IMG/VR virus record: IMGVR_UViG_3300037785_000058
Coordinates: 1-47,616 of that record
Source: a virus
Taxonomy: Duplodnaviria > Caudoviricetes
DNA length: 47,616 nucleotides
Direction: 5' to 3' (one strand)
Every line of letters begins with the position of its first letter. Position 1 is the first letter of the stretch. Position numbers and translations under genes: made by a program. The notes beneath the pieces are model-generated. The model worked only from the letters and a program-made list of their open reading frames with translations. It did not search any database and was not told the origin of the DNA. Below, one piece after another: positions 14,072 through 42,161 of the stretch.

Positions 14072-14154
14072 GTGTTACAGCGAATCACAGATCCGTGAGC
14101 GGCTGTAACACGGGCGCGCGGGGGCTTGCGCGTGTCGCGTCGCTGTGTTTTTCT
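14072..14154 (+). promoter_or_regulatory. Inverted-repeat operator-like element plus early promoter 1
   Basis: GTGTTACAGC..TCAC-N6-GTGA..GCTGTAACAC, then TTGCGC-17bp-TTTTCT (weak -10). Confidence 0.5.
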
Positions 14155-14190: not shown

Positions 14191-14448
14191 ATGCAAGCCA
14201 GCCACACCCCCGCCGCCCGCGCCGCCGACGACGCCGCCCGCGCCGCCCGTTGGGCCGCCGTCGCCCGGGCGGGGCTCCCCTTGTGGGCGCCCCGCGACGG
14301 AGCCGAGCGCGCCGCCCGCGCCGCCGAGCGCGCCGCCCGCGCCGCCCGCGCCGCCGCCCGCGCCGAGCGCGACGGACGGAACGCCAACCCCGCCGCCGAG
14401 CGCGCCGCCGCCGCCGCCCGGAGCGCGCAGCGCGCCGCCGGGGCGTGA
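14191..14448 (+). CDS. Small Ala/Arg-rich low-complexity protein
   Basis: ATG after ACACGGAGAG, the same RBS context as other early genes; 85 aa of AARAA repeats. Confidence 0.5.
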   Translation: MQASHTPAARAADDAARAARWAAVARAGLPLWAPRDGAERAARAAERAARAARAAARAERDGRNANPAAERAAAAARSAQRAAGA

Positions 14449-14483
14449 CGGGGCGGCAACGGCGCCACCCGCGACGACAAAAA

Positions 14484-14550
14484 GGCGAAACGGGGCACAC
14501 GCCGCCCCGTCCGCCGGGCTTGCTCCGCCCGGCGCTGACGAGCCAGAGCG
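14484..14550 (+). ncRNA. Type II hammerhead ribozyme 1 (pseudoknotted)
   Basis: GGC-GAAA-CGGGGC/GCCCCG-UC^-CGCCGGGC[UUGCUCC]GCCCGGCG-CUGACGA-GCC-AGAGCG. Full catalytic core with GUC cleavage triplet (cut after 14511). Loop I UGCUC pairs with the 3' GAGCG. Confidence 0.9.
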
Positions 14551-14569
14551 ACACACAGGAAACAGACCG

Positions 14570-14779
14570 ATGACAAAGACCACCAACGCAAACGCCAACG
14601 ACGCAGAGCGCGAAACCCTCCTCGCAGCCCTCCGCTCCCTTGCGGCGGAGACAGAGCTGGCAGGACGAGCTTGCCCTCGCGCCGTCTGGGAAGAAGCCGA
14701 CGACGAAGACCAAACGAGCGAACTGCACGACACCTGCGTGGCGCAGGCCGCAGCGAACCTGCTGGCCCTCCTTTCCTGA
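14570..14779 (+). CDS. Hypothetical early protein (69 aa)
   Basis: ATG after an ACACAGGA RBS, downstream of ribozyme 1. Confidence 0.7.
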   Translation: MTKTTNANANDAERETLLAALRSLAAETELAGRACPRAVWEEADDEDQTSELHDTCVAQAAANLLALLS

Positions 14780-14974
14780 CGACGCAGGGGCGGGCGACGA
14801 AGCCCGCCCCACACCACCGCTTCCGCCGGGCAAACGGCGGCCCTTTCTAAGACGCCCGAGGGAATCGGGGGAGGCGACGCCGAGGTATGCCTTGCGTCCG
14901 AGGCCGGTTGTACCGACGCAGCCGACGCAACCCCCAGTTGCAAAACCCCCAACGCAGCCGACGGAAGCCCGCTC

Positions 14975-15046
14975 TTGTTACAGTCATTCACAGACTCGTG
15001 AGGCCGTGTTACAGTGATTGCGCAACCTCGCCGCCTGTGGTAGAAT
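14975..15046 (+). promoter_or_regulatory. Operator-like element plus early promoter 2
   Basis: TGTTACAG..TCAC-N6-GTGA..TGTTACAG, then TTGCGC-17bp-TAGAAT. Homologous to 14072-14154. Confidence 0.65.
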
Positions 15047-15097
15047 GGTTGTAGATCGGGGGGCACGGAGCACCCCGGCGACACAGGAGAAGCACCA

Positions 15098-15898
15098 ATG
15101 GACACCCAAGCACACACCGACATCCCCACCCTGCGCGACGCACTGGAAGGCGTCCGCATCCACCACGCCCGCAGGGCAAAGGCCGAAGCGCTTGCCGACA
15201 CGCTCGCCGCCGAATACACCGGCATCGCCCTGCAACCGGTCTGCATCGACGAAGGCGGCGCGGAGGTCCTCGCCGCGTGGGAGGTCGTGGCGACGCAAGA
15301 GTGGACCGGCGACGAAGGCGAAGCCAGCACCGAACCGGGCACGGTCCTTTTCGTCACGGAAGACGCCGTTGTCCCGGCCCTCGCGGACATCCTCGACGTA
15401 ATCGACGAGAGTTTCCCGGGATATCCCGTCGAGGGCGACGCCGACGACGAAGAGCAGAAACCCTCTGGATCGGTGGTGCCCGAGACCTATCGTGCCAGCT
15501 ACCGGGAGAACAGCAGCACCGGCCAATCCTGCGGCGACTTCCTCGCCGAGTGGCTCGCGACGCAGACCCTCGACGCCGACGGCAAGCTGGACGTCTCCGC
15601 CTTTGACGCGATCCTCGACGCGAATGGCGTGGAGCGCGTCGGCAAGTGGGCGAGCCTCCCGCAATCGGGTCAGAAGGGCTGGGTCGGGCGCTACCGGATG
15701 AATGGGCGGCAGGTGCTGGAGAAGCGCGTGGCCATCTCGGAGACGCTGCGCCACGGCGACGGCACCCCGGTCGAGCACGCCGAGCTTCCCGCCGCAATCG
15801 CCGACCTGCAGGCCAAGCACGCTAAGTGGCTCGCCAAAGAGCGCAAGGCGATCGCCGCCGCCGAAGAGGCGCTGCCCGGCAAGCCCGAGGCCGAGTGA
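15098..15898 (+). CDS. Hypothetical early protein (266 aa)
   Basis: ACACAGGAG RBS and strong GC3 codon bias. C-terminal domain resembles 23969-24481. Confidence 0.8.
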   Translation: MDTQAHTDIPTLRDALEGVRIHHARRAKAEALADTLAAEYTGIALQPVCIDEGGAEVLAAWEVVATQEWTGDEGEASTEPGTVLFVTEDAVVPALADILDVIDESFPGYPVEGDADDEEQKPSGSVVPETYRASYRENSSTGQSCGDFLAEWLATQTLDADGKLDVSAFDAILDANGVERVGKWASLPQSGQKGWVGRYRMNGRQVLEKRVAISETLRHGDGTPVEHAELPAAIADLQAKHAKWLAKERKAIAAAEEALPGKPEAE

Positions 15899-15969
15899 GG
15901 CGAAACGGGGCGGCACACCCACCGCCCCGTCCACCGGGACTGCTCTACCGGTGCTGACGAGCCAGAGCA
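15899..15969 (+). ncRNA. Type II hammerhead ribozyme 2 (pseudoknotted)
   Basis: GGC-GAAA-CGGGGCGG/CCGCCCCG-UC^-CACCGG[GACUGCUCUA]CCGGUG-CUGACGA-GCC-AGAGCA. Cut after 15931. UGCUCU/AGAGCA pseudoknot, with a compensatory change relative to copy 1. Confidence 0.92.
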
Positions 15970-15989
15970 AACACACAGGAGAACACCCG

Positions 15990-16361
15990 ATGTCCATCCT
16001 TATTGCCCTTCCCGCGCCCAAGGCCGAGCGCGACGCCTACGCGAAAACGCTTGCCGCCTACAACGAAGCGCGGGCGCAGCTGCTTGCTGCGATGCGGCAG
16101 ACCACCATCGCCGAAGTCTATCTTTCCCAGCCGGGCGCGAGCGATACCGACACCGACACCGAATACGAAGATCGATGGAACGAAGCCGAGTTCCGAATCC
16201 ACGACGAAAATGGAAACGCACACCCGATTGCGTGGGTCGACGAGCAGGAAGGACCGGATGGTCCTTTCTACGAGGTCTGGACCTACGACCATCGAGGCAA
16301 CGAAACCGTCGTCGGCTACTACGACGCAAAAGCACCCGTCTACTACGTCCCCCTTGCCTAA
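15990..16361 (+). CDS. Hypothetical early protein (acidic)
   Basis: ATG after an ACACAGGAG RBS, downstream of ribozyme 2. Confidence 0.75.
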   Translation: MSILIALPAPKAERDAYAKTLAAYNEARAQLLAAMRQTTIAEVYLSQPGASDTDTDTEYEDRWNEAEFRIHDENGNAHPIAWVDEQEGPDGPFYEVWTYDHRGNETVVGYYDAKAPVYYVPLA

Positions 16362-16398
16362 GACGAAACCACACCACGCCACACAGGAGAACACCCCC

Positions 16399-16620
16399 AT
16401 GTTTCGCACCTACGAGTCCCACGTGGACGTGCAAGGAACCGATGGCACCACGATGTGTTTCGGCGGGCTGGGCAGCAGCGAAAGGGCTGCCCGTCGCGAC
16501 GCACTCGCCCGCGCCCTGCTGGAAATCGAGAACATCGACCCGGCAGCGCAGCGCACCGGCGATCTTTCCCTCGATCTGCTTGCCGCGTGCAACGCGGGCT
16601 GGAGGTTTTCCCATGCCTAA
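16399..16620 (+). CDS. Hypothetical protein
   Basis: ACACAGGAG RBS; starts MFRTYESH. Confidence 0.65.
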   Translation: MFRTYESHVDVQGTDGTTMCFGGLGSSERAARRDALARALLEIENIDPAAQRTGDLSLDLLAACNAGWRFSHA

Positions 16621-18775: not shown

Positions 18776-18885
18776 CTGGGGCTGCTACACCGTGTTGGCA
18801 GTCTGCCTTCTCTCGCGGCGCTGCTGCCCAGCCGCGACACTAGCCCCGATCGCTTTGCCTGTGTAGCGATCGGGGCTTTTTATTT
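18776..18885 (+). ncRNA. Candidate structured small RNA (about 110 nt)
   Basis: Own promoter, two 7-bp hairpins (18781-18802, 18813-18837), and a 13-bp terminator stem with U tract (18842-18885). No ORF with an RBS. Confidence 0.55.
18842..18885 (+). terminator. Intrinsic terminator
   Basis: AGCCCCGATCGCT-N10-AGCGATCGGGGCT-TTTTATTT. Confidence 0.85.
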
Positions 18886-28520: not shown

Positions 28521-28921
28521 TGTTACCCAGAGCAGGGAGTATGTGGCGGCACCGCAAGACCAACGGTCTTTATGTCGTGGTCGGCGGAGGGCGTCTAGAG
28601 TCGGAATGGGTGGCGTCTGTTTCGTATATGGCCTTGAATGGGGACAGCACCATCATTCATCGGGCTGCGACCGAGTTCATGGATGGCAGGTTCGAACACG
28701 TTCCCAACCATGTCATTCAGAAGGCCATGGAGGCCGACGCCGAGGGCGACGCGAAAGAGACTGTGTTGCCGAGTGGCGAGTGGGAGCCGATCCCCTGTCC
28801 TTGTGGCCATTCTGCCTGTAGAGACTGGATGATTCGTCCGGTCGCGGCGGTGCAGGGGGTCTCCTTCACAAAAGAAGAGGCTATTGCCGTCTGCGAGGCC
28901 CACAACAGAGGCTTGATTTGA
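28520..28921 (+). CDS. DUF1653-like domain protein with a Cys-rich C-terminus
   Basis: WRHRKTNGLYVV...VSY...HRAATEFMDGRF; CPCGHSAC. Confidence 0.55.
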   Translation: MLPRAGSMWRHRKTNGLYVVVGGGRLESEWVASVSYMALNGDSTIIHRAATEFMDGRFEHVPNHVIQKAMEADAEGDAKETVLPSGEWEPIPCPCGHSACRDWMIRPVAAVQGVSFTKEEAIAVCEAHNRGLI

Positions 28922-30777
28922 TGATCGATCTGGCAGCGAATGCTGATAAGGCCCTGCGCATCGCAGCGGAGGCACATGATATCTCTTACGACACCGAAAC
29001 GAGTGGGGTGGACTGGAGGTTCAACAACCCCGTGGGGTATGTGTTAGGTGCTCCGGGGAAAGATGGGGTGCTACGGCAGGAGGACGTCGTATACGTGCCG
29101 GTGCGGCACGGGGGCGGGGGAAACCTACTGGACGACGTCAAGCCGCTCCAGACGCCCACAGACCCTATCACTCCGTCCCGTTTCGAGACCGCGCTGGGTA
29201 AGGCATTCGCCGCCAGACCTACGACGAAGGGCCGGATCATCGGTCACAACATCAAGTTCGACTGCCACATGTCTGCAAACGCCGGGATCTACCTTGGTCG
29301 CCGCATGGCATGCACCCAGCTGCAAGAGGCGCTTCTGGACGAATACACGAAGTCATTCAGCCTCGATTCCTGTGCTCAGACTCATGGCGTCACGGCGAAG
29401 CTAGGACAAGACTTGTATAACGTTCTGTCGGCCAATTTCGGTGGTCCGGCGGAACGGAGCAGCATGCAGTATTTCTGGCGCATCGCTGGCAACGATCCTA
29501 CAGCTTACGATTACGCTACGGGCGATGGCGTCTCGACGTGGGAACTGTATCAGTCGCAGGTCCAGAAGCTGCAGGAAGAAGACCTCCAGTTGGTGACGGA
29601 CCTCGAAAATGATCTGATCTGGACGGTGTTCCGTATGGAGCGCCGGGGCATACGGGTTGATCGAGATCGGATTGACCAGTTGCGCCAAGCCACGGAGGCG
29701 CGCATCCGGGAATTGCTGACGAAGTTCCCAGTGGGTTTCAACGTCCGGTCCCCCAAGATGATGAAAGAGGCGATGGAGGCGGCGGGTCACACTGACTGGC
29801 CGACGACCGAGCGAGGCAATCCGTCTTTCACTGAGAAGTGGCTGTCCAAGCACGACACAGGGCGGGCGATCATCGACATTCGTCGCGCTAGTAACCTTCT
29901 CAATTCGTTTGTTGGACCTCTCGAAGAGCGCCATTTGTTCAAGGGCCGGGTCCATGCCACGCTCAACCAGCTTAAGAGCGACCAGATGGGCACCATTTCG
30001 GGTCGGTTCAGCTGCAACTCGCCCAACCTACAGCAGGTTCCGAAGCGCGTGAAGGAGGTGGCCAAACCGTTCCGGCGATTGTTCGTTGCGGATGAGGGGT
30101 ACATCTTTTGGGAGCGGGACTATTCTCAGTGTGAACCCCGTTTGTTCGCTCACTACTCGCAAGATCCCAATCTGCTCGACGGCTACAACTCGGAGCCATT
30201 CGTGGACGCACACTCGGTCACAGCTAAGCTGCTAGGCGTCGAAAGAGACCCTACGGCCAAGAGGATGAACATGGGCATCCTCACTGGAATGCAGGTTCGC
30301 GCGTTGGCTGGCCATATGGGTTGTAGCGAAGCCGAGGCACGCATCATGTGGAACAATTGGTATGCCGCTTATCCAGGCATCCGTCAGTTCCAAGACAAGG
30401 CCAAGACGAGGCTGCAGAACCGGGGATATGTCCACACTCTTCTCGGTCGCCGAGGCAGATTGGAGCATCGCCGCTTCGCGTACCGGGGCGTCAGCAAGAT
30501 CATTCAGGGTAGTAACGCCGACATCGTGAAGTACAAGCTACTCGAAGCGGATCGGCTTTGCGAAGATAACGGTGACATCGTGCAGGTTCACATGACCGTG
30601 CACGACTCCTACAACGGACAATACCAGGACACGCCCGAGGCCCGGAAGCTGTTCGAACACATGGTGCACCGCATGGAGCAAGTGCAGGAAGAACCGTTCA
30701 ATCTCTCTGTGCCCTTCGTGATGGAGGGCGAAGAAGGCGGCGACTGGTGCGAGGCAACATTCGGAGTCGATGACTGA
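28921..30777 (+). CDS. polA: Family A DNA polymerase with 3'-5' exonuclease; candidate Z-selective DpoZ
   Basis: Exo I DTETSG, Exo II GHNIKFD, Exo III YATGD; SGRFSCNSPNLQQVP; motif A DYSQCEPR, motif B AKRMNMGILTG, motif C VHDS. Confidence 0.95.
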   Translation: MIDLAANADKALRIAAEAHDISYDTETSGVDWRFNNPVGYVLGAPGKDGVLRQEDVVYVPVRHGGGGNLLDDVKPLQTPTDPITPSRFETALGKAFAARPTTKGRIIGHNIKFDCHMSANAGIYLGRRMACTQLQEALLDEYTKSFSLDSCAQTHGVTAKLGQDLYNVLSANFGGPAERSSMQYFWRIAGNDPTAYDYATGDGVSTWELYQSQVQKLQEEDLQLVTDLENDLIWTVFRMERRGIRVDRDRIDQLRQATEARIRELLTKFPVGFNVRSPKMMKEAMEAAGHTDWPTTERGNPSFTEKWLSKHDTGRAIIDIRRASNLLNSFVGPLEERHLFKGRVHATLNQLKSDQMGTISGRFSCNSPNLQQVPKRVKEVAKPFRRLFVADEGYIFWERDYSQCEPRLFAHYSQDPNLLDGYNSEPFVDAHSVTAKLLGVERDPTAKRMNMGILTGMQVRALAGHMGCSEAEARIMWNNWYAAYPGIRQFQDKAKTRLQNRGYVHTLLGRRGRLEHRRFAYRGVSKIIQGSNADIVKYKLLEADRLCEDNGDIVQVHMTVHDSYNGQYQDTPEARKLFEHMVHRMEQVQEEPFNLSVPFVMEGEEGGDWCEATFGVDD

Positions 30778-31016
30778 TGGGCTATGAATATGTTGTATTC
30801 GAAGGAGTGGTCCTCCAGCGAACCGCTCGGGGGGTTCTGTTCCAAGGCCACTATTGGGAAGCACCCCTATGGTTGCCTACTTCGCAGACTTTGCACGAAC
30901 CCGACGGCGACATGGCGTGCGTGATGGGCGTCAAATCGTGGCTGGCTAGCAAGAAAGGCCTAAGCGAGTTCACCCAGTACAGCGAAGAAGAAATCAAGCT
31001 GATAGCAGGGGTGTGA
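30777..31016 (+). CDS. Small hypothetical protein (WxPxSQ family)
   Basis: TGATG coupling; RTARGVLF...LWLPTSQ. Confidence 0.6.
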   Translation: MGYEYVVFEGVVLQRTARGVLFQGHYWEAPLWLPTSQTLHEPDGDMACVMGVKSWLASKKGLSEFTQYSEEEIKLIAGV

Positions 31017-31447
31017 TGGCGAAGACTCCCAGAAAAGAATTGAAGTTCCAGGATCACTTGATCGACAGCTACCGATTAGTGGGTGGTCACGCGCACAAGT
31101 GGGCCTCAGAGTGGCTTATAGGGGTGCCTGATTTGGTGTGTTGTCTGCCGACAATAGGCGTCCATTTGATTGAGGTCAAGCACATTCCTATACTCAGCTT
31201 GGGACAGAAGAACCCTATGACCGCTAAACAAGTATACGAGTGCAAGCGGTATAAGGACGCGGGCGGTCTGGTGTTCTTGGCTGTGGTGAAGGGGGGACCA
31301 GAGGCGCGAGCCACACAGGTGGCTCTTTTTGACGTCAGCAACGAAAAATTGTACGATCCTCTATCGGGCTGGCACCCTTACGTTCCCGGCAAGAAATACG
31401 ACGTCACCCGCATGGCAATAAAAGCTGTGCAACAAATGGAGAGTTAA
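31016..31447 (+). CDS. PD-(D/E)xK nuclease (VRR-NUC / Holliday junction resolvase-like)
   Basis: E..FQ...GVPDL...LIEVK...Q motifs. Confidence 0.8.
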   Translation: MAKTPRKELKFQDHLIDSYRLVGGHAHKWASEWLIGVPDLVCCLPTIGVHLIEVKHIPILSLGQKNPMTAKQVYECKRYKDAGGLVFLAVVKGGPEARATQVALFDVSNEKLYDPLSGWHPYVPGKKYDVTRMAIKAVQQMES

Positions 31448-31449
31448 GA

Positions 31450-31749
31450 ATGAGCGACGATGAACTGAGGTCAATCCTGAATGAAAGGGGCAGAAACTAT
31501 GGCCCCTTTTCGGGCCACGCTGACGCAACACAGTCCATCAAGAGGGCATGTCAGCGTCATTTGAACAAAAATGAGCGCTTCGATGACCTGAGCTATAAAG
31601 ATCAGGCTGTGGTTCTTGAAGCGCTAGACATGATTGCCCATAAGATCGGACGCATCGTCAACGGAGACCCGCTGTTCAAAGACAGTTGGGACGACATTGC
31701 CGGGTATGCTCGCCTCGTGCCCGAACACACAGGAGACAAAGATGCATGA
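31450..31749 (+). CDS. DUF6378-like helical protein (nucleotide-metabolism associated)
   Basis: ILNERGRNYG...KIGRIVNGDP..KDSWDDIAGYA. Confidence 0.7.
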   Translation: MSDDELRSILNERGRNYGPFSGHADATQSIKRACQRHLNKNERFDDLSYKDQAVVLEALDMIAHKIGRIVNGDPLFKDSWDDIAGYARLVPEHTGDKDA

Positions 31750-32791
31750 ATACTGTCAGGCCTTGACCCATGAAGGGTATCTGGCCGAAGGGGCGAATTT
31801 TCTCGTGGACGGCCAGTATGGTAGCACGGGGAAGGGACTCGTCGCTGCGCTTATGGGCGAGAACATGCCCTACGCAACCAACCGGGTCACCAGCAACGCA
31901 GGCCCGAATTCGGGACACACCAGCTTCATTGGTGGCAAGAAGGTCGTGCTGCAACAGCTGCCTTCTTTCGCCGTCGCTGCGGCTCGGCATCGCAATACGC
32001 CCATCGAGGTTCTTCTCAACGCAGGAGCGGTGATTGACCCCTCGATCTTGACCAGAGAAATTAGTCAACACGGCACCAACATCATCGTCAGGGTACACCC
32101 CAACGCCGCTGTGGTCACTGAGAGTGCCCTTCGCCATGAAACCGGGATGCACGAAAGAATCGGCTCGACTGGCAAGGGCGTCGGGGCAGCGATCGCGGCC
32201 AAGGTGATGCGAGAGCCTCTCGCTGTTGCTTCCCAACACGTCGCGGCACTGGAGGGCGCGGGGGTGCAGTACGCCATCCGACTCGGTCGCAAGGCGCCCC
32301 AGTTCGTCGAAGTGTCGCAGGGGTTCAGTTTGAGTTTGAATGCAGGAGGGTTTTATCCGTACTGCACAAGCCGAGACTGCACGGTGCAGCAGGCTCTTAC
32401 CGACGCAGGGCTGCATCCTCGTGATTATCATCAGGCCATCGCGGTCTACCGAACCTTCCCCATCCGGGTCGCGGGTTCCTCTGGGCCGATGTATTCGGAC
32501 CAGCAAGAGATATCGTGGCAATCGATCGGCCAGAAGCCCGAGATAACGACCGTGACGAAGAAAATCCGCAGGTTGTTTACGTGGTCGCGTCAGCAATTCA
32601 AGGCCTCGGTTGCTTGGAATCGTCCAGAACATCTGTTCATCAACTTCATGAACTACCTCAATCCTGAGGATCGAATGCCGTTCCTGCACCAAGTGATTTC
32701 TGACTACAAGGACGTCATCGGGCTTCGACCCCTCACCGTGGGATTGGGCTTCGGCCCCAAACCCGAAGACGTGGAGATGTACCAGATATGA
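31742..32791 (+). CDS. purZ: N6-succino-2-amino-2'-deoxyadenylate synthase (PurA paralogue)
   Basis: DGQYGSTGKG has Ser in place of the catalytic Asp of PurA GDEGKG. Also NAGPNSGHT, RIGSTGKGVG, SQGFSL, YPYCTSR, RTFPIRV, TTVTKKIRR and INFMNY. AGGAG RBS; 349 aa. Confidence 0.93.
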   Translation: MHEYCQALTHEGYLAEGANFLVDGQYGSTGKGLVAALMGENMPYATNRVTSNAGPNSGHTSFIGGKKVVLQQLPSFAVAAARHRNTPIEVLLNAGAVIDPSILTREISQHGTNIIVRVHPNAAVVTESALRHETGMHERIGSTGKGVGAAIAAKVMREPLAVASQHVAALEGAGVQYAIRLGRKAPQFVEVSQGFSLSLNAGGFYPYCTSRDCTVQQALTDAGLHPRDYHQAIAVYRTFPIRVAGSSGPMYSDQQEISWQSIGQKPEITTVTKKIRRLFTWSRQQFKASVAWNRPEHLFINFMNYLNPEDRMPFLHQVISDYKDVIGLRPLTVGLGFGPKPEDVEMYQI

Positions 32792-33096
32792 CTTTGCAAA
32801 TCCCGCTGCCGCCCGAAATGGAGCCGTACAGGACTGATCTAGAGTATTTCTTCAATACCATGGTCCGTAAGTTGTATTGCAACCGCCACAAGGGGACAGG
32901 ATCCGACTTGAACCCGGTAAATATGCTGTCGCTCTGCAGCCGAGAACTCGCCGAAGCGGAAAAGGCTATGGCACATGAAGGCCAGTTTCAGTTTCTGGTG
33001 GAGTGCTGCGATGTTGCGAATATGGCGTTTCTGGCCACTCGTGGAGCGCTACAACTGACAAGGGAGGAATTCGATGCAGTCGCACGATCTGAATAG
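32788..33096 (+). CDS. MazG-like all-alpha NTP pyrophosphohydrolase; candidate MazZ equivalent
   Basis: ExxE (ELAE) and ExxD (ECCDVANMA) metal motifs. Sits between purZ and datZ. Confidence 0.6.
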   Translation: MTLQIPLPPEMEPYRTDLEYFFNTMVRKLYCNRHKGTGSDLNPVNMLSLCSRELAEAEKAMAHEGQFQFLVECCDVANMAFLATRGALQLTREEFDAVARSE

Positions 33097-33598
33097 AATC
33101 CGAAGGCTTTCGATGGTGCCTCGCTGGTGCGTGGTGCCGACCATACGACAGCAGAGCGTGGCGGAGCATGTTTTCCAGGCGACGCGGACCGCCATGTGGC
33201 TTTATGACTTATACTGGCCGCTCACCGATCGGGGTCCCTCTACAAAACTGGCTCTGATTGACCACGTGTTGTCTCATGACGATGACGAAGCGGTGACCGG
33301 AGACATGCCTTCTCCTGTCAAGGGTCGCAAAAACCCGAAAGAGCTGAGCCAGATCGAGCTTATGGCTAAATGCGCGGATTATCTGGAGGCGATAGCGTTC
33401 CTGCAAGAAGAACGCAACATGGGTAATCAGTTCGGGATCGGGGTGCTAATGGCTGACCTCGTTGATAGGCTTGACTCATACTGGCTTTTGTTGAAAATCG
33501 ACGTTGAAAAGCCCCAAGTAGAGAAGCTCGTCACAGATTTTCTGAGGGCCTCGGTCAGGCCCAACAATCATCCGGCCATGGCGGAGGGCCAGTTTTGA
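33074..33598 (+). CDS. datZ: HD-domain phosphohydrolase; dATPase DatZ-like
   Basis: RLSMVPRW...QSVAEH...HDDDEAVTGDMPSPVK...KCADYLEA. Adjacent to purZ. Confidence 0.8.
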   Translation: MQSHDLNRIRRLSMVPRWCVVPTIRQQSVAEHVFQATRTAMWLYDLYWPLTDRGPSTKLALIDHVLSHDDDEAVTGDMPSPVKGRKNPKELSQIELMAKCADYLEAIAFLQEERNMGNQFGIGVLMADLVDRLDSYWLLLKIDVEKPQVEKLVTDFLRASVRPNNHPAMAEGQF

Positions 33599-35079: not shown

Positions 35080-35104
35080 CACACACGCTCCGCCGTGGTA
35101 TAGT
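35076..35104 (+). promoter_or_regulatory. Near-consensus sigma70 promoter
   Basis: TTGACA-17bp-TATAGT. Confidence 0.85.
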
Positions 35105-35156
35105 GAGGTATAGATCGGTATAGATCGGTATAGATCGGTATAGATCGGGATAAAGC
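35097..35156 (+). repeat. 10-bp tandem repeat GGTATAGATC x4, plus 2 degenerate flanking units
   Basis: Perfect units at 35107, 35117, 35127 and 35137; degenerate units at 35097 (includes the -10 box) and 35147. Confidence 0.95.
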
Positions 35157-35568: not shown

Positions 35569-35727
35569 ATGAACAACCAGCACGCGTCCAGCCAAGATCC
35601 CCGATCGTCACGACTCTACCTAGAGGTTGCTGCTCGCTTTCAAAAGCTGCATGGGCCTTCTGCCCGAATACGTCCGAAAGGAAACAGGCGGGCCAGCGCC
35701 GCCTACCGCGAGAAGGTGAAGCCATGA
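35569..35727 (+). CDS. Small hypothetical protein
   Basis: GGAGG RBS; ends in the shared AAYREKVKP block. Confidence 0.5.
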   Translation: MNNQHASSQDPRSSRLYLEVAARFQKLHGPSARIRPKGNRRASAAYREKVKP

Positions 35728-35981
35728 CCATCAGCATCAAGGAACTTAAGGCGACTGTAGAACGCAATAGTCAAGCTGACCGCTTCGATTTGGCAGACCT
35801 CGCCCCCGATATGGCCGAGGCGCTGATAGCGGCGGAAGGCCCGGCGCGCGCTCTAAAGGCATTTCTGCATGAAGGCTTTGCGGAAGTCGAACTGCGAAAA
35901 CGCTTTGATGGTGCCACGGTGAATGACATTTTGCAGGGCCGCGCTGCACTCGCCGCCTACCGCGAGAAGGCGAAGCCATGA
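35724..35981 (+). CDS. Hypothetical protein (MTISIKEL paralogue 1)
   Basis: ATGA coupling; shares blocks with 35978-36313. Confidence 0.7.
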   Translation: MTISIKELKATVERNSQADRFDLADLAPDMAEALIAAEGPARALKAFLHEGFAEVELRKRFDGATVNDILQGRAALAAYREKAKP

Positions 35982-36313
35982 CCATCAGCATCAAGGAACT
36001 GCGGGAGGCGAAGGACGGGGCGGCACCGGGGCCGTGGCCACGTGCGCCCATGTGGCCGGACATTCCGCTCTCCCTTTCCGGCATCACCGTTTCAATTTTT
36101 CCAAGGGGCCAAGGGGGGCAAGAGGCCGAGGCCAACACGCAGTTAGTTTTGTCGGCCCCCGACATGGCCGAGGCGCTGCTGGCGGCGAACGAAGCCATCG
36201 GGGCTTTGCTCCATGAGCGCGACCTCGCATGTCAGGACATGGGCCAGCAGCTTGCTGCCTCAAAGGCGGCTGACGAGGCCGTCGCCGCCTACCGCGAGAA
36301 GGTAAAGACATGA
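35978..36313 (+). CDS. Hypothetical protein (MTISIKEL paralogue 2; Ead/Ea22-like blocks)
   Basis: APGPW...EAEANTQLVLSAPDMAEAL. Confidence 0.7.
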   Translation: MTISIKELREAKDGAAPGPWPRAPMWPDIPLSLSGITVSIFPRGQGGQEAEANTQLVLSAPDMAEALLAANEAIGALLHERDLACQDMGQQLAASKAADEAVAAYREKVKT

Positions 36314-36322
36314 GAGGACAAA

Positions 36323-36511
36323 ATGAAAAATTTTCAAGAATGGCTTGAACGGGCAATGGAAAAAAACTTCGCTGTCGTTTTTCTTGTTGGGGCGTGCATG
36401 ATGATCGGGGCGTTTGGATTTGTTCTCTTGGTCACAGCCTCAAACGGGATGGCGTTGGCGCTGCCGTTTCTTGCAATTGCATGGCTTTACTACAAGGATA
36501 CAAAGAAATGA
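36323..36511 (+). CDS. Small membrane protein
   Basis: GAGGA RBS; two hydrophobic segments. Confidence 0.6.
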   Translation: MKNFQEWLERAMEKNFAVVFLVGACMMIGAFGFVLLVTASNGMALALPFLAIAWLYYKDTKK

Positions 36512-40544: not shown

Positions 40545-42161
40545 TCATACTCCTCTGATTGGAACGACCACTGTTCTGGGGCGGGCGGCCACGGTCACTG
40601 TTCTGCTCGGACGTTCTGGGACTTCTACTACTCGACTGGGGCGTGCTGGGATTTGAACGATTCGCCAGTCAGGGGTCAGAAAGACTACGATGGAGCCGGT
40701 GGCTCTGGCAGCAGGGGCCGTCGCTGCGCCCGCGCCAATTACTTCCCGCTCACCTACGCCCGAAGCAGAAGCCGGGAAAGCGACGGCTGCGCCCTCCCCT
40801 ACAATCTCTCTTTTCCCGACGCCCGAAACTTGCGCTGCAGGGGCAGTACCGCCCCCGGAGCCGACCGCCCCCCGCTTACCTACACCCGAAACTTGTACTG
40901 CAGGGGCCGTCGCTGCGCCCGAGCCGACTACCTCCCGCTCACCTACGCCCGAGGCTGTGGCCGCTGGGCCAACTGCTGAGCCCGTTGGGTTGACGGCATC
41001 GGCCCCGGTCCCCGAGCCTGTGGAGGTCGCGGCAGGGGCCGTTGCAGCGCCCGTACCGACGACCTCGCGCTCTGCGGTGCCTGCGGCAGTCGCCGGGGCC
41101 GACGCAACGAGCTGAGCGCCCGTACCGACGACCTCGCGCTCTGCGGTGCCTGCGGCAGTCGCCGGGGCCGACGCAACGAGCTGAGCGCCCGTGCCGACCG
41201 CCTCGCGCTCGCCTGTGCCGCTCGCCGTCGCCGGGGCCGACGCAACGAGCTGAGCGCCCGTGCCCGTGACCTCGCGCTCGCCTGTGCCGCTCGCCGTCGC
41301 CGCAGGGGCCGTCGCCGCTCCGGTAACCTCGGCGGCCACCGTCGTCTCGACGCGCAGGATAACGACGCCCGAGCCGCCGTCGCCTCCTCCGCTGCCGGTG
41401 TCACCACCACCGCCGCCGCCCCCGAGACCGTCCGTGCCGGGCAGGCCTGTGTCGTCGAGTGTGACGCCCCCGCCTCCGCCGAGGCCCCCGTTACCGCCAA
41501 CGCCCCGACCGCCGCCTCCGCTGCCGCCCCCGGCGTAATACGTCGACACGCCGGTGATCGAACTAGGGAGACCGTCGCCACCGTCTCCGTAGAACCCGTT
41601 AACAGCATCAGCGTCACCGCCCGGGAAGCCCGCGCCGCCGCCCCCGCCACCGTAAGCGTTTGCATCCTCGTTGCCGCGCCCCCCGGCGTTGCCCTGCCCC
41701 GGCGTGCCGGGGCTTCCCAGCGCACCGCCGCTTCTGCCGGAACCACCACCCCCGGAGCCACCCGTGCCGCCAGATTTCAGAGAGAACGCGTCGCCACCGA
41801 AGCCACCGCCCAGAGCGACGACCAAGGCCCCGATGGAGCTGTCGCTGCCGGATGTGCCGGTGTTCGCGCTACCAGCAGCGCCGCCAATGCCGCCCGGGCC
41901 GACCGTGATGGCATATGACTGCGCCGAGACTGCGACCGTTCCTTCGAGCATCCCGCCCGCGCCGCCGCCCCCGACGGAGAGGTTCGCGTTCGAGCCGCCG
42001 CCGCCACCGCCGACGACCAGATACTCGACGTCGCCACCGGCAGAGAACTCGATGGTCCCGCCCGCCGTCGAGCTGAAGGTGTAGACGTCGAAGGTCTGCG
42101 ACCCGACCGTGATCGAGGTGAGGGCGGCGCCAGAGAATGAGGAGACGACGGCTGCGGGCAC
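40545..42161 (-). CDS. Glycine-rich virion fibre/spike protein with tandem repeats
   Basis: N-terminal Gly-rich domain (VEYLVVGGGGGG...YYAGGG...GGSGVVILR), then 23-aa and 20-aa repeats. Confidence 0.75.
   Translation of the reverse strand: MPAAVVSSFSGAALTSITVGSQTFDVYTFSSTAGGTIEFSAGGDVEYLVVGGGGGGSNANLSVGGGGAGGMLEGTVAVSAQSYAITVGPGGIGGAAGSANTGTSGSDSSIGALVVALGGGFGGDAFSLKSGGTGGSGGGGSGRSGGALGSPGTPGQGNAGGRGNEDANAYGGGGGGAGFPGGDADAVNGFYGDGGDGLPSSITGVSTYYAGGGSGGGGRGVGGNGGLGGGGGVTLDDTGLPGTDGLGGGGGGGDTGSGGGDGGSGVVILRVETTVAAEVTGAATAPAATASGTGEREVTGTGAQLVASAPATASGTGEREAVGTGAQLVASAPATAAGTAEREVVGTGAQLVASAPATAAGTAEREVVGTGAATAPAATSTGSGTGADAVNPTGSAVGPAATASGVGEREVVGSGAATAPAVQVSGVGKRGAVGSGGGTAPAAQVSGVGKREIVGEGAAVAFPASASGVGEREVIGAGAATAPAARATGSIVVFLTPDWRIVQIPARPSRVVEVPERPSRTVTVAARPRTVVVPIRGV
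41047..41300. repeat. 69-bp in-frame tandem repeats (about 3.5 copies)
   Basis: GCCGGGGCCGACGCAACGAGCTGAGCGCCCGT at 41092, 41161 and 41230. Confidence 0.9.

Follow-up and report, generated by a model that had tools for sequence, protein, structure and literature searches.

Two type II hammerhead ribozymes likely separate first genes from their followers in predicted early units of an apparently lytic tailed phage

Two elements (HH1 and HH2) on the + strand of an uncultured phage genome have the make-up of pseudoknotted type II hammerhead ribozymes, and it is likely, judged from sequence, that they self-cleave after C14511 and C15931, respectively, splitting the first gene from its followers in two predicted early units. 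The window (the whole 47,616-nt stretch of DNA that was analysed) is a complete, circularly assembled genome of about 47.5 kb on one contig, with a 127-nt end repeat. It belongs to a tailed phage: among the 67 ORFs scanned, the genes for terminase, portal, head, and tail extend leftward from about 13,700, those for primase, polymerase, and helicase extend rightward from 18,955, and the ribozymes lie among small genes between these two blocks. The genes around the ribozymes are termed early from their position only. The locus comprises the following features:

14073..14154, + strand: promoter-like module 1, with a repeated operator-like motif, TTGCGC (14126-14131), 17 nt, and TTTTCT (14149-14154)
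14191..14448, + strand: first gene of unit 1, 85 aa, Ala/Arg-rich, no family and no NCBIfam match
14447..14457, + strand: 11-nt arm over the stop codon at 14446-14448, perfect complement of 14501-14511
14484..14551, + strand: HH1, type II hammerhead (Rfam RF02276, listed pairs, and fold); stem II 14484-14486/14542-14544, stem III 14490-14496/14504-14510, stem I 14512-14519/14527-14534, pseudoknot 14520-14525/14546-14551 with one U-G pair; predicted cut after C14511
14552..14572, + strand: CA-rich spacer, Shine-Dalgarno-like AGGA, and ATG for the gene behind HH1 (from sequence)
14570..14779, + strand: gene behind HH1, 69 aa, no family
14787..14810, + strand: GC hairpin after the 69-aa gene, folding z-score -2.77, without a U-tract (U-tract census)
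14976..15046, + strand: promoter-like module 2, with the operator-like motif of module 1, TTGCGC (15018-15023), 17 nt, and TAGAAT (15041-15046)
15098..15898, + strand: first gene of unit 2, 266 aa, conserved uncharacterised family
15899..15969, + strand: HH2, type II hammerhead (Rfam RF02276, pairs, and fold); stem I 15932-15937/15948-15953, pseudoknot 15941-15946/15964-15969, all Watson-Crick; predicted cut after C15931
15970..15992, + strand: CA-rich spacer, Shine-Dalgarno-like AGGAG, and ATG for the gene behind HH2 (from sequence)
15990..16361, + strand: gene behind HH2, 123 aa, no family, followed by further small genes
16359..16401, + strand: gap after the 123-aa gene, with stop codon, CGAAAC, a short unstructured spacer, and a Shine-Dalgarno tail of the HH2 type (alignment)

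Both copies contain the complete core in the type II order described in the earlier note (GGC-GAAA, stem III, GUC, stem I, CUGACGA-GCC), with GUC at 14509-14511 (HH1) and 15929-15931 (HH2) and CUGACGA at 14535-14541 and 15954-15960, in agreement with the CUGANGA/GAAA/NUH rule of Hammerhead_II. Stem II (3 bp, GGC/GCC) is identical in the two copies, and stem I (8 bp in HH1, 6 bp in HH2) shows at its second pair the compensatory G-C/A-U difference that had been claimed. In the listed pairs and in the minimum-energy folds of the isolated elements, loops close stems I and III, and stem II is open. The proposed complementarity of loop I to the 3' segment amounts to a 6-bp helix in each copy, read from complementarity alone as the folding program cannot model a pseudoknot; in the Hammerhead_II definition, loop I forms at least four pairs with the tail behind stem II. 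The predicted cuts lie where the earlier note placed them, with 58 nt between each cut and the next ATG (14570 and 15990). That note had also asked for a search with the Rfam Hammerhead_II covariance model, in which both elements are significant: HH1 matches at 14483-14552 with 41.0 bits (E 4.8e-5) and HH2 at 15898-15971 with 40.4 bits (E 6.7e-5), each over the full model (1-66) and against a gathering cut-off of 37 bits. The assignment of HH1 and HH2 to the pseudoknotted type II hammerheads is thus supported. They are the only Hammerhead_II matches above cut-off in the whole window; there was no third ribozyme among the nine Rfam matches of a looser scan of the window (E of at most 10), nor with a pattern for core plus stems.

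That pattern finds two sites in the window and none in 300 first-order Markov resamples; for the core words alone there are three matches against 0.6 expected, and at least three were reached by 4 of 100 shuffles. For the isolated elements the minimum-energy structure is the hammerhead, with modest folding z-scores (-1.46 for HH1 and -2.33 for HH2). When native flanks are included in pseudoknot-free folding, stem II rarely forms, and the full hammerhead fold lies above the ensemble by 1.8-7.8 kcal/mol (HH1) and 3.2-6.2 kcal/mol (HH2).

The setting of these elements is shared with type II hammerheads elsewhere in IMG/VR. In 17 of the 64 parts of that collection, 153 loci match one strict pattern (estimate for IMG/VR: about 450 stretches). 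They comprise 160 distinct matches, of which a stem filter passed 134 and set aside 26. Although the pattern makes no demand on them, the initial four pairs of stem I are intact in 151-157 of the 160 matches, and those of stem III in 138-150. A pseudoknot of at least four Watson-Crick pairs occurs in 53% of the 134, vs. 13% with shuffled partners (maximum 22%, 500 shuffles). A Shine-Dalgarno sequence plus start codon follows within 50 nt in 109/134 copies; two controls placed upstream gave 23 and 14. An upstream gene on the same strand is present in 93 of the 126 copies with enough flank, and ends no more than 5 nt away in 60 of those 93. At least two copies occur in 31 of 80 wide-flank loci, with mixed strands in none; some of these loci share a contig and overlap, and related sequences are not independent. 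The survey copies thus point to a common cassette of stop codon, hammerhead, Shine-Dalgarno sequence, and start codon. Because they show the same stop/start layout, HH2, which begins at the base directly 3' of the upstream stop codon, is a standard cassette, and HH1 departs from it by a 35-nt spacer only. The equal spacing from cut to ATG in HH1 and HH2 was considered as a special signal and rejected, as it is the family norm (median 57 nt, IQR 53-60, in 109 other phage copies). Two survey matches (L002 3001-3060 and L103), excluded by the stem filter, have stems that fit only if the register is shifted, with a GUC as decoy, and possibly represent a different permutation.

HH1 and HH2 both sit in gaps between + strand ORFs, and the order around each is stop codon, hammerhead, Shine-Dalgarno, start codon. 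The word CACACAGG of the Shine-Dalgarno region behind the ribozymes occurs eight times on the + strand and not at all on the - strand. Unit 1 comprises the 85-aa gene, HH1, the 69-aa gene, and the GC hairpin, and unit 2 the 266-aa gene, HH2, and the 123-aa gene. As each ribozyme is preceded by a promoter-like module of its own and that module's first gene, there is likely one cut per unit, in two units; this picture is tempered by the hairpin between the units, which has no U-tract. The earlier note had the ribozymes punctuate early polycistronic RNA: self-processing of the + transcript stands as the best reading, and most likely it does not involve one long RNA, each ribozyme having a module of its own. 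The boxes of both modules were read by eye. Those of module 1 are absent from the output of a promoter consensus scan, and for module 2 the scan gives only a weaker overlapping site (14987-15015). Module 1 DNA matches two modules in a relative (G005/L164) in which the -10 box is TATTCT. The -10 box of module 1 (TTTTCT) is poor and lacks the usual A; the promoter may be weak or dead, and HH1 may therefore be weakly transcribed. In G005, a complete relative, the module is repeated ahead of its early genes.

The operator-like motif, with TGTTACAG and CTGTAACA arms, lies directly upstream of the promoter-like boxes (14073-14110 and 14976-15014) and recurs in G005/L164 at about 199-240, 1120-1160, 1469-1509, 1625-1664, and 2145-2186; it is a possible site for a phage or host regulator. 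The gap at 16359-16401 may, speculatively, be the relic of a deleted third hammerhead. On the - strand, HH1 stem III and the upstream A-run form a hairpin with a U-tract (14479-14514), a possible leftward terminator.

The genome appears to be that of a PurZ-carrying phage of lytic type, and no integrase was found among the 67 ORFs scanned. Genes for a family A polymerase, a PurZ-like protein, and a dATPase-like protein are located at 28918-33598. The best NCBIfam scores are 231 bits for PurZ (NF038379, cut-off 300) and 288 bits for DpoZ (NF038380, cut-off 500), both below cut-off and therefore indicative of a divergent member; the best PDB match of the PurZ-like protein is 6fko, named as the PurZ of phiVC8 (PMC8342488). 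The DatZ-like gene was recognised by its match to a dATP triphosphohydrolase PHROG. From the PurZ-, DatZ-, and DpoZ-like genes, we infer that the phage likely has 2-aminoadenine (Z) DNA. A PurZ-like gene is also present in three complete relatives, and a PurZ scan of viral contigs gave no match. The nearest cultured capsids (49-56% identical) are mostly those of Rhizobium and Aminobacter phages, together with one Pseudanabaena and one Stenotrophomonas phage. Five relatives in which the capsid protein finds no match share early and Z-cluster genes with this phage, perhaps not the head module.

A link between the Z-genome and the ribozymes, by which U:Z pairs would weaken intrinsic terminators and ribozymes would make 3' ends instead, was considered and rejected on three counts: among 49 virus records with a hammerhead (long contigs chosen from about 170 loci), only two carry PurA/PurZ, the PurZ-positive relatives G003 and G005 are without a hammerhead, and ordinary U-tract terminators occur at 18877, 24537, and 38834. 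No literature title joining the two topics was found.

Three further features of the genome lie outside the ribozyme locus. A tandem 10-nt repeat, GGTATAGATC, directly follows the helicase gene (35097-35152) and is a possible origin or binding array. A 50-nt repeat occurs at three gene junctions (35697-35746, 35951-36000, and 36283-36332; two are 98% identical), which suggests cassette duplication among small genes. On the - strand, a 538-aa protein with 63/69-nt tandem repeats (40545-42161; PHROG of unknown function) adjoins the endolysin.

The 266-aa protein encoded upstream of HH2 allows the same gene junction to be viewed in related phages. It has 152 homologs (8000 candidates scored), and its structural model is confident (pLDDT 88). 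It has no Pfam, PHROG, or NCBIfam match, no PDB fold at E of 0.001 or less (Foldseek), and none in the Atlas; a viral structure library gives only uncharacterised Ochrobactrum phage proteins. An alignment search of genome contigs retrieved it from 0 of 96 candidates. In PurZ-carrying relatives the gene usually lies behind a promoter-like site of its own. An Rfam scan found a hammerhead in 0/19 ortholog loci, and the ortholog stop codon is followed by a GC hairpin of at least about 7 bp in 17/18 loci, a count made by eye, without a shuffle control, on related sequences that are not independent; one doubtful homolog (L159, 31% over 73 residues) was excluded. This hairpin is often adjoined by a Shine-Dalgarno sequence and start codon. 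In scans of whole records, Hammerhead_II matches occur in one of 18 related records (G010), and none of five cultured capsid relatives has a match above cut-off. G010 is PurZ-carrying, and two type II hammerheads flank one small gene there (L185/L186, G010:C1:27447-27806); the ortholog of the 266-aa gene in G010 lies about 5 kb away. As a hairpin stands at the ortholog slots and the hammerhead is patchy, HH2 would occupy a plain-hairpin slot in which it was gained or lost, and the cassette appears to be an optional part of these genomes, gained and lost rather than fixed in this phage group.

The modest value of HH1 and HH2 is comparative, and lies in the plain hairpin found in orthologous gaps of related phages. 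It suggests that the ribozyme keeps the 3'-end role of the hairpin and adds a new 5' end. The orthologous gaps provide a ready natural sequence pair for a reporter swap; direct tests are limited by the phage being uncultured, and the pair by itself leaves the question of what phage intergenic ribozymes do unchanged. The plain hairpin of relatives in the HH2 slot is what is newly added here, the element, its setting, and the hypothesis of its role having been known since 2011. No literature title dealing with the replacement of a hairpin by a hammerhead, or with phage hammerheads gated by ribosomes, was found in a search that covered few subscription journals.

Cleavage of this type would leave a 2',3'-cyclic phosphate on the upstream and a 5'-OH on the downstream product (PMC6765202). 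In the favoured reading, the upstream message would end in the stem III hairpin, which would take over the job of the relatives' 3' hairpin, and the downstream message would begin with the stem I/pseudoknot fold, about 58 nt before the start codon. An open stem II of 3 bp would let the products part, so that cleavage would be close to irreversible, and the separated messages would then decay and be translated independently. The hairpin-capped 5' ends envisaged in the earlier note are predicted for the HH1 product and not cleanly for that of HH2, the first three bases of which are predicted to be unpaired (0.84-0.89, pseudoknot left out of the folding). A cleavage-gated Shine-Dalgarno sequence was also considered and rejected: predicted access is the same before and after the cut (0.68 and 0.68 in one copy, 0.31 and 0.30 in the other), and a translation switch by that route is therefore not expected.

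What the cut would do to expression depends on the fate of the 5'-OH product. Such ends slow RNase E. They are not always protective, because cleavage by the glmS ribozyme, which also leaves a 5'-OH, is followed by RNase decay and a drop in expression (PMC6765202). By analogy, cleavage by HH1 and HH2 might lower or time-limit expression through faster degradation of the 5'-OH product, with the genes downstream of the cut damped in relation to the first gene; a free 5' end predicted for the HH2 product would fit this, as would the preponderance of Rhizobiales phages (RNase J group) among the capsid relatives. Rhizobiales have RNase J as well as RNase E. We nonetheless regard such damping as unlikely, given that 109/134 surveyed copies place a good Shine-Dalgarno sequence and start codon at a tight distance downstream. 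Moreover, the 5' end of a major transcript of halovirus HF2 lies within 3 nt of a hammerhead cut, and cleavage products can therefore persist (PMC3088659).

A second alternative concerns HH1 and the 11-nt arm that precedes it, the target of which (14501-14511) comprises the 3' strand of stem III and the cleavage triplet. All 11 pairs are Watson-Crick, and about 5 per 10,000 composition shuffles reach 11. The arm helix has a predicted energy of -23.6 kcal/mol, vs. -13.6 kcal/mol for stem III, and the arm outcompetes stem III in naked RNA: in unmasked folding with the arm present, stem III has a probability of 0.00-0.10, which becomes 0.94 when the RNA begins 13 nt after the stop codon. HH1 might accordingly be gated by translation, with the arm hiding the cleavage site until a ribosome terminating at 14446-14448 covers it, so that the cut would report translation of the first gene; the recovery of stem III without the arm mimics what this ribosome would do, and three arm-paired bases in loop III could act as a toehold. 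If this were true, the phage would cut the message only after its first gene had been translated and, with HH2 in a plain-hairpin slot, there would be a natural swap experiment on the purpose of phage hammerheads.

Translational gating is nevertheless distinctly improbable. With the pseudoknot strands held out, stem III is favoured over the arm (0.60 vs. 0.34), and the local hairpin should form earlier during transcription. The arrangement is not general, as HH2 has no comparable arm and among 131 other copies 11 pairs are reached in none and 8 in one; an upstream competing arm was rejected as a general feature (at least 6 nt in 6 copies vs. 2.9 expected). A close relative that might show conservation of the arm was looked for and none was found: patterns for close relatives of the exact elements returned 1, 18, and 8 stretches with no early protein in common with the window, and the lone match of the first pattern is not a hammerhead. 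The arm also fits a family of hairpins in this phage (14787, 15907, and 4676) and the post-stop hairpin of G005/L164, where a similar arm follows the first gene; descent from such a hairpin accounts for the complementarity without selection. The arm is most likely the leftover 5' arm of an older post-stop hairpin, the simpler reading because it resembles the post-stop hairpins of the phage and G005 and is found in none of the 131 other copies. After cleavage, the arm helix would pair the upstream message through its last base.

It is also quite improbable that the cassettes cleave but are mobile or recombining repeats of a near-neutral kind, which spread and disappear through recombination among intergenic repeats and hardly affect fitness. 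Their patchy presence (1/18 related records and 0/5 cultured capsid relatives over cut-off) and the possible deleted third copy at 16359-16401 accord with such turnover. Against it, the loops of HH1 and HH2 have diverged, yet every core base, the compensatory stem I pair, and the 6-bp pseudoknot are kept, which points to selection for fast cleavage, and copies within a locus are all on one strand (no mixed case among the 80 wide loci). Release of a 1420-nt RNA (14512-15931), closed to a circle by a host RtcB-type ligase or by the ribozyme halves, is very unlikely: its ends would be 5'-OH and 2',3'-cyclic phosphate, stem II is identical in both copies, and the U-tract-less hairpin at 14787-14810 makes read-through possible, but a promoter-like module lies between the ribozymes, no RNA ligase was found among 67 ORFs scanned vs. 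PHROGs, a 3-bp stem II should favour product release, and spliced or circular products of tandem hammerheads are described as sought and not seen (data not shown in the source; PMC3088659).

Self-processing of phage transcripts is the best reading for HH1 and HH2, and it is an already-published proposal: the cutting of long phage transcripts into gene-length mRNAs was put forward by Perreault et al. (2011; PMC3088659), who also described type II hammerheads, the pseudoknot needed for fast cleavage, and clusters flanking prophage genes. In that account, tandem prophage hammerheads cleaved in vitro in three of three arrangements, and in Escherichia coli for one, and activity was seen for 14 of 18 consensus hammerheads (PMC3088659). 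A 2019 review repeats the transcript-cutting proposal and calls the purpose undefined and largely elusive (PMC6765202). HH1 and HH2 are like the elements of RF02276 and of that 2011 account in permutation, core, short open stem II, 6-bp pseudoknot, and GUC (PMC3088659); the architecture is otherwise equal, and stem II has 3 bp here where the Rfam consensus draws 2.

The HHphage hammerhead of haloviruses HF1 and HF2 likewise belongs to the early region of lytic viruses and lies shortly upstream of a start codon, with a transcript 5' end mapping near the cut; as described, HHphage is a core variant located 13 nt from the start in an archaeal virus, whereas HH1 and HH2 have the consensus core and a distance of 58 nt (PMC3088659). 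The glmS ribozyme resembles them in self-cleaving upstream of a coding region and leaving a 5'-OH, and differs in having another fold, needing a metabolite, and leading to decay (PMC6765202). The prophage clusters of Agrobacterium, Azorhizobium, and Clostridium scindens are similar in that several same-strand copies lie between small phage genes (PMC3088659). The present case differs from those clusters in having only two copies, each placed behind a first gene that has its own promoter-like module, in belonging to an apparently PurZ-carrying and lytic phage, and in that the flanking genes have no known family. In RiboJ-type insulators and in the RNase III processing of T7 early mRNA, a cut plus a hairpin gives a defined 5' end whatever lies upstream; RiboJ is engineered, and T7 early-mRNA processing uses a host nuclease and yields 5'-phosphate ends. 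HH1 and HH2 are comparable to both in that a cut plus a hairpin would define the 5' end of the gene behind each ribozyme.
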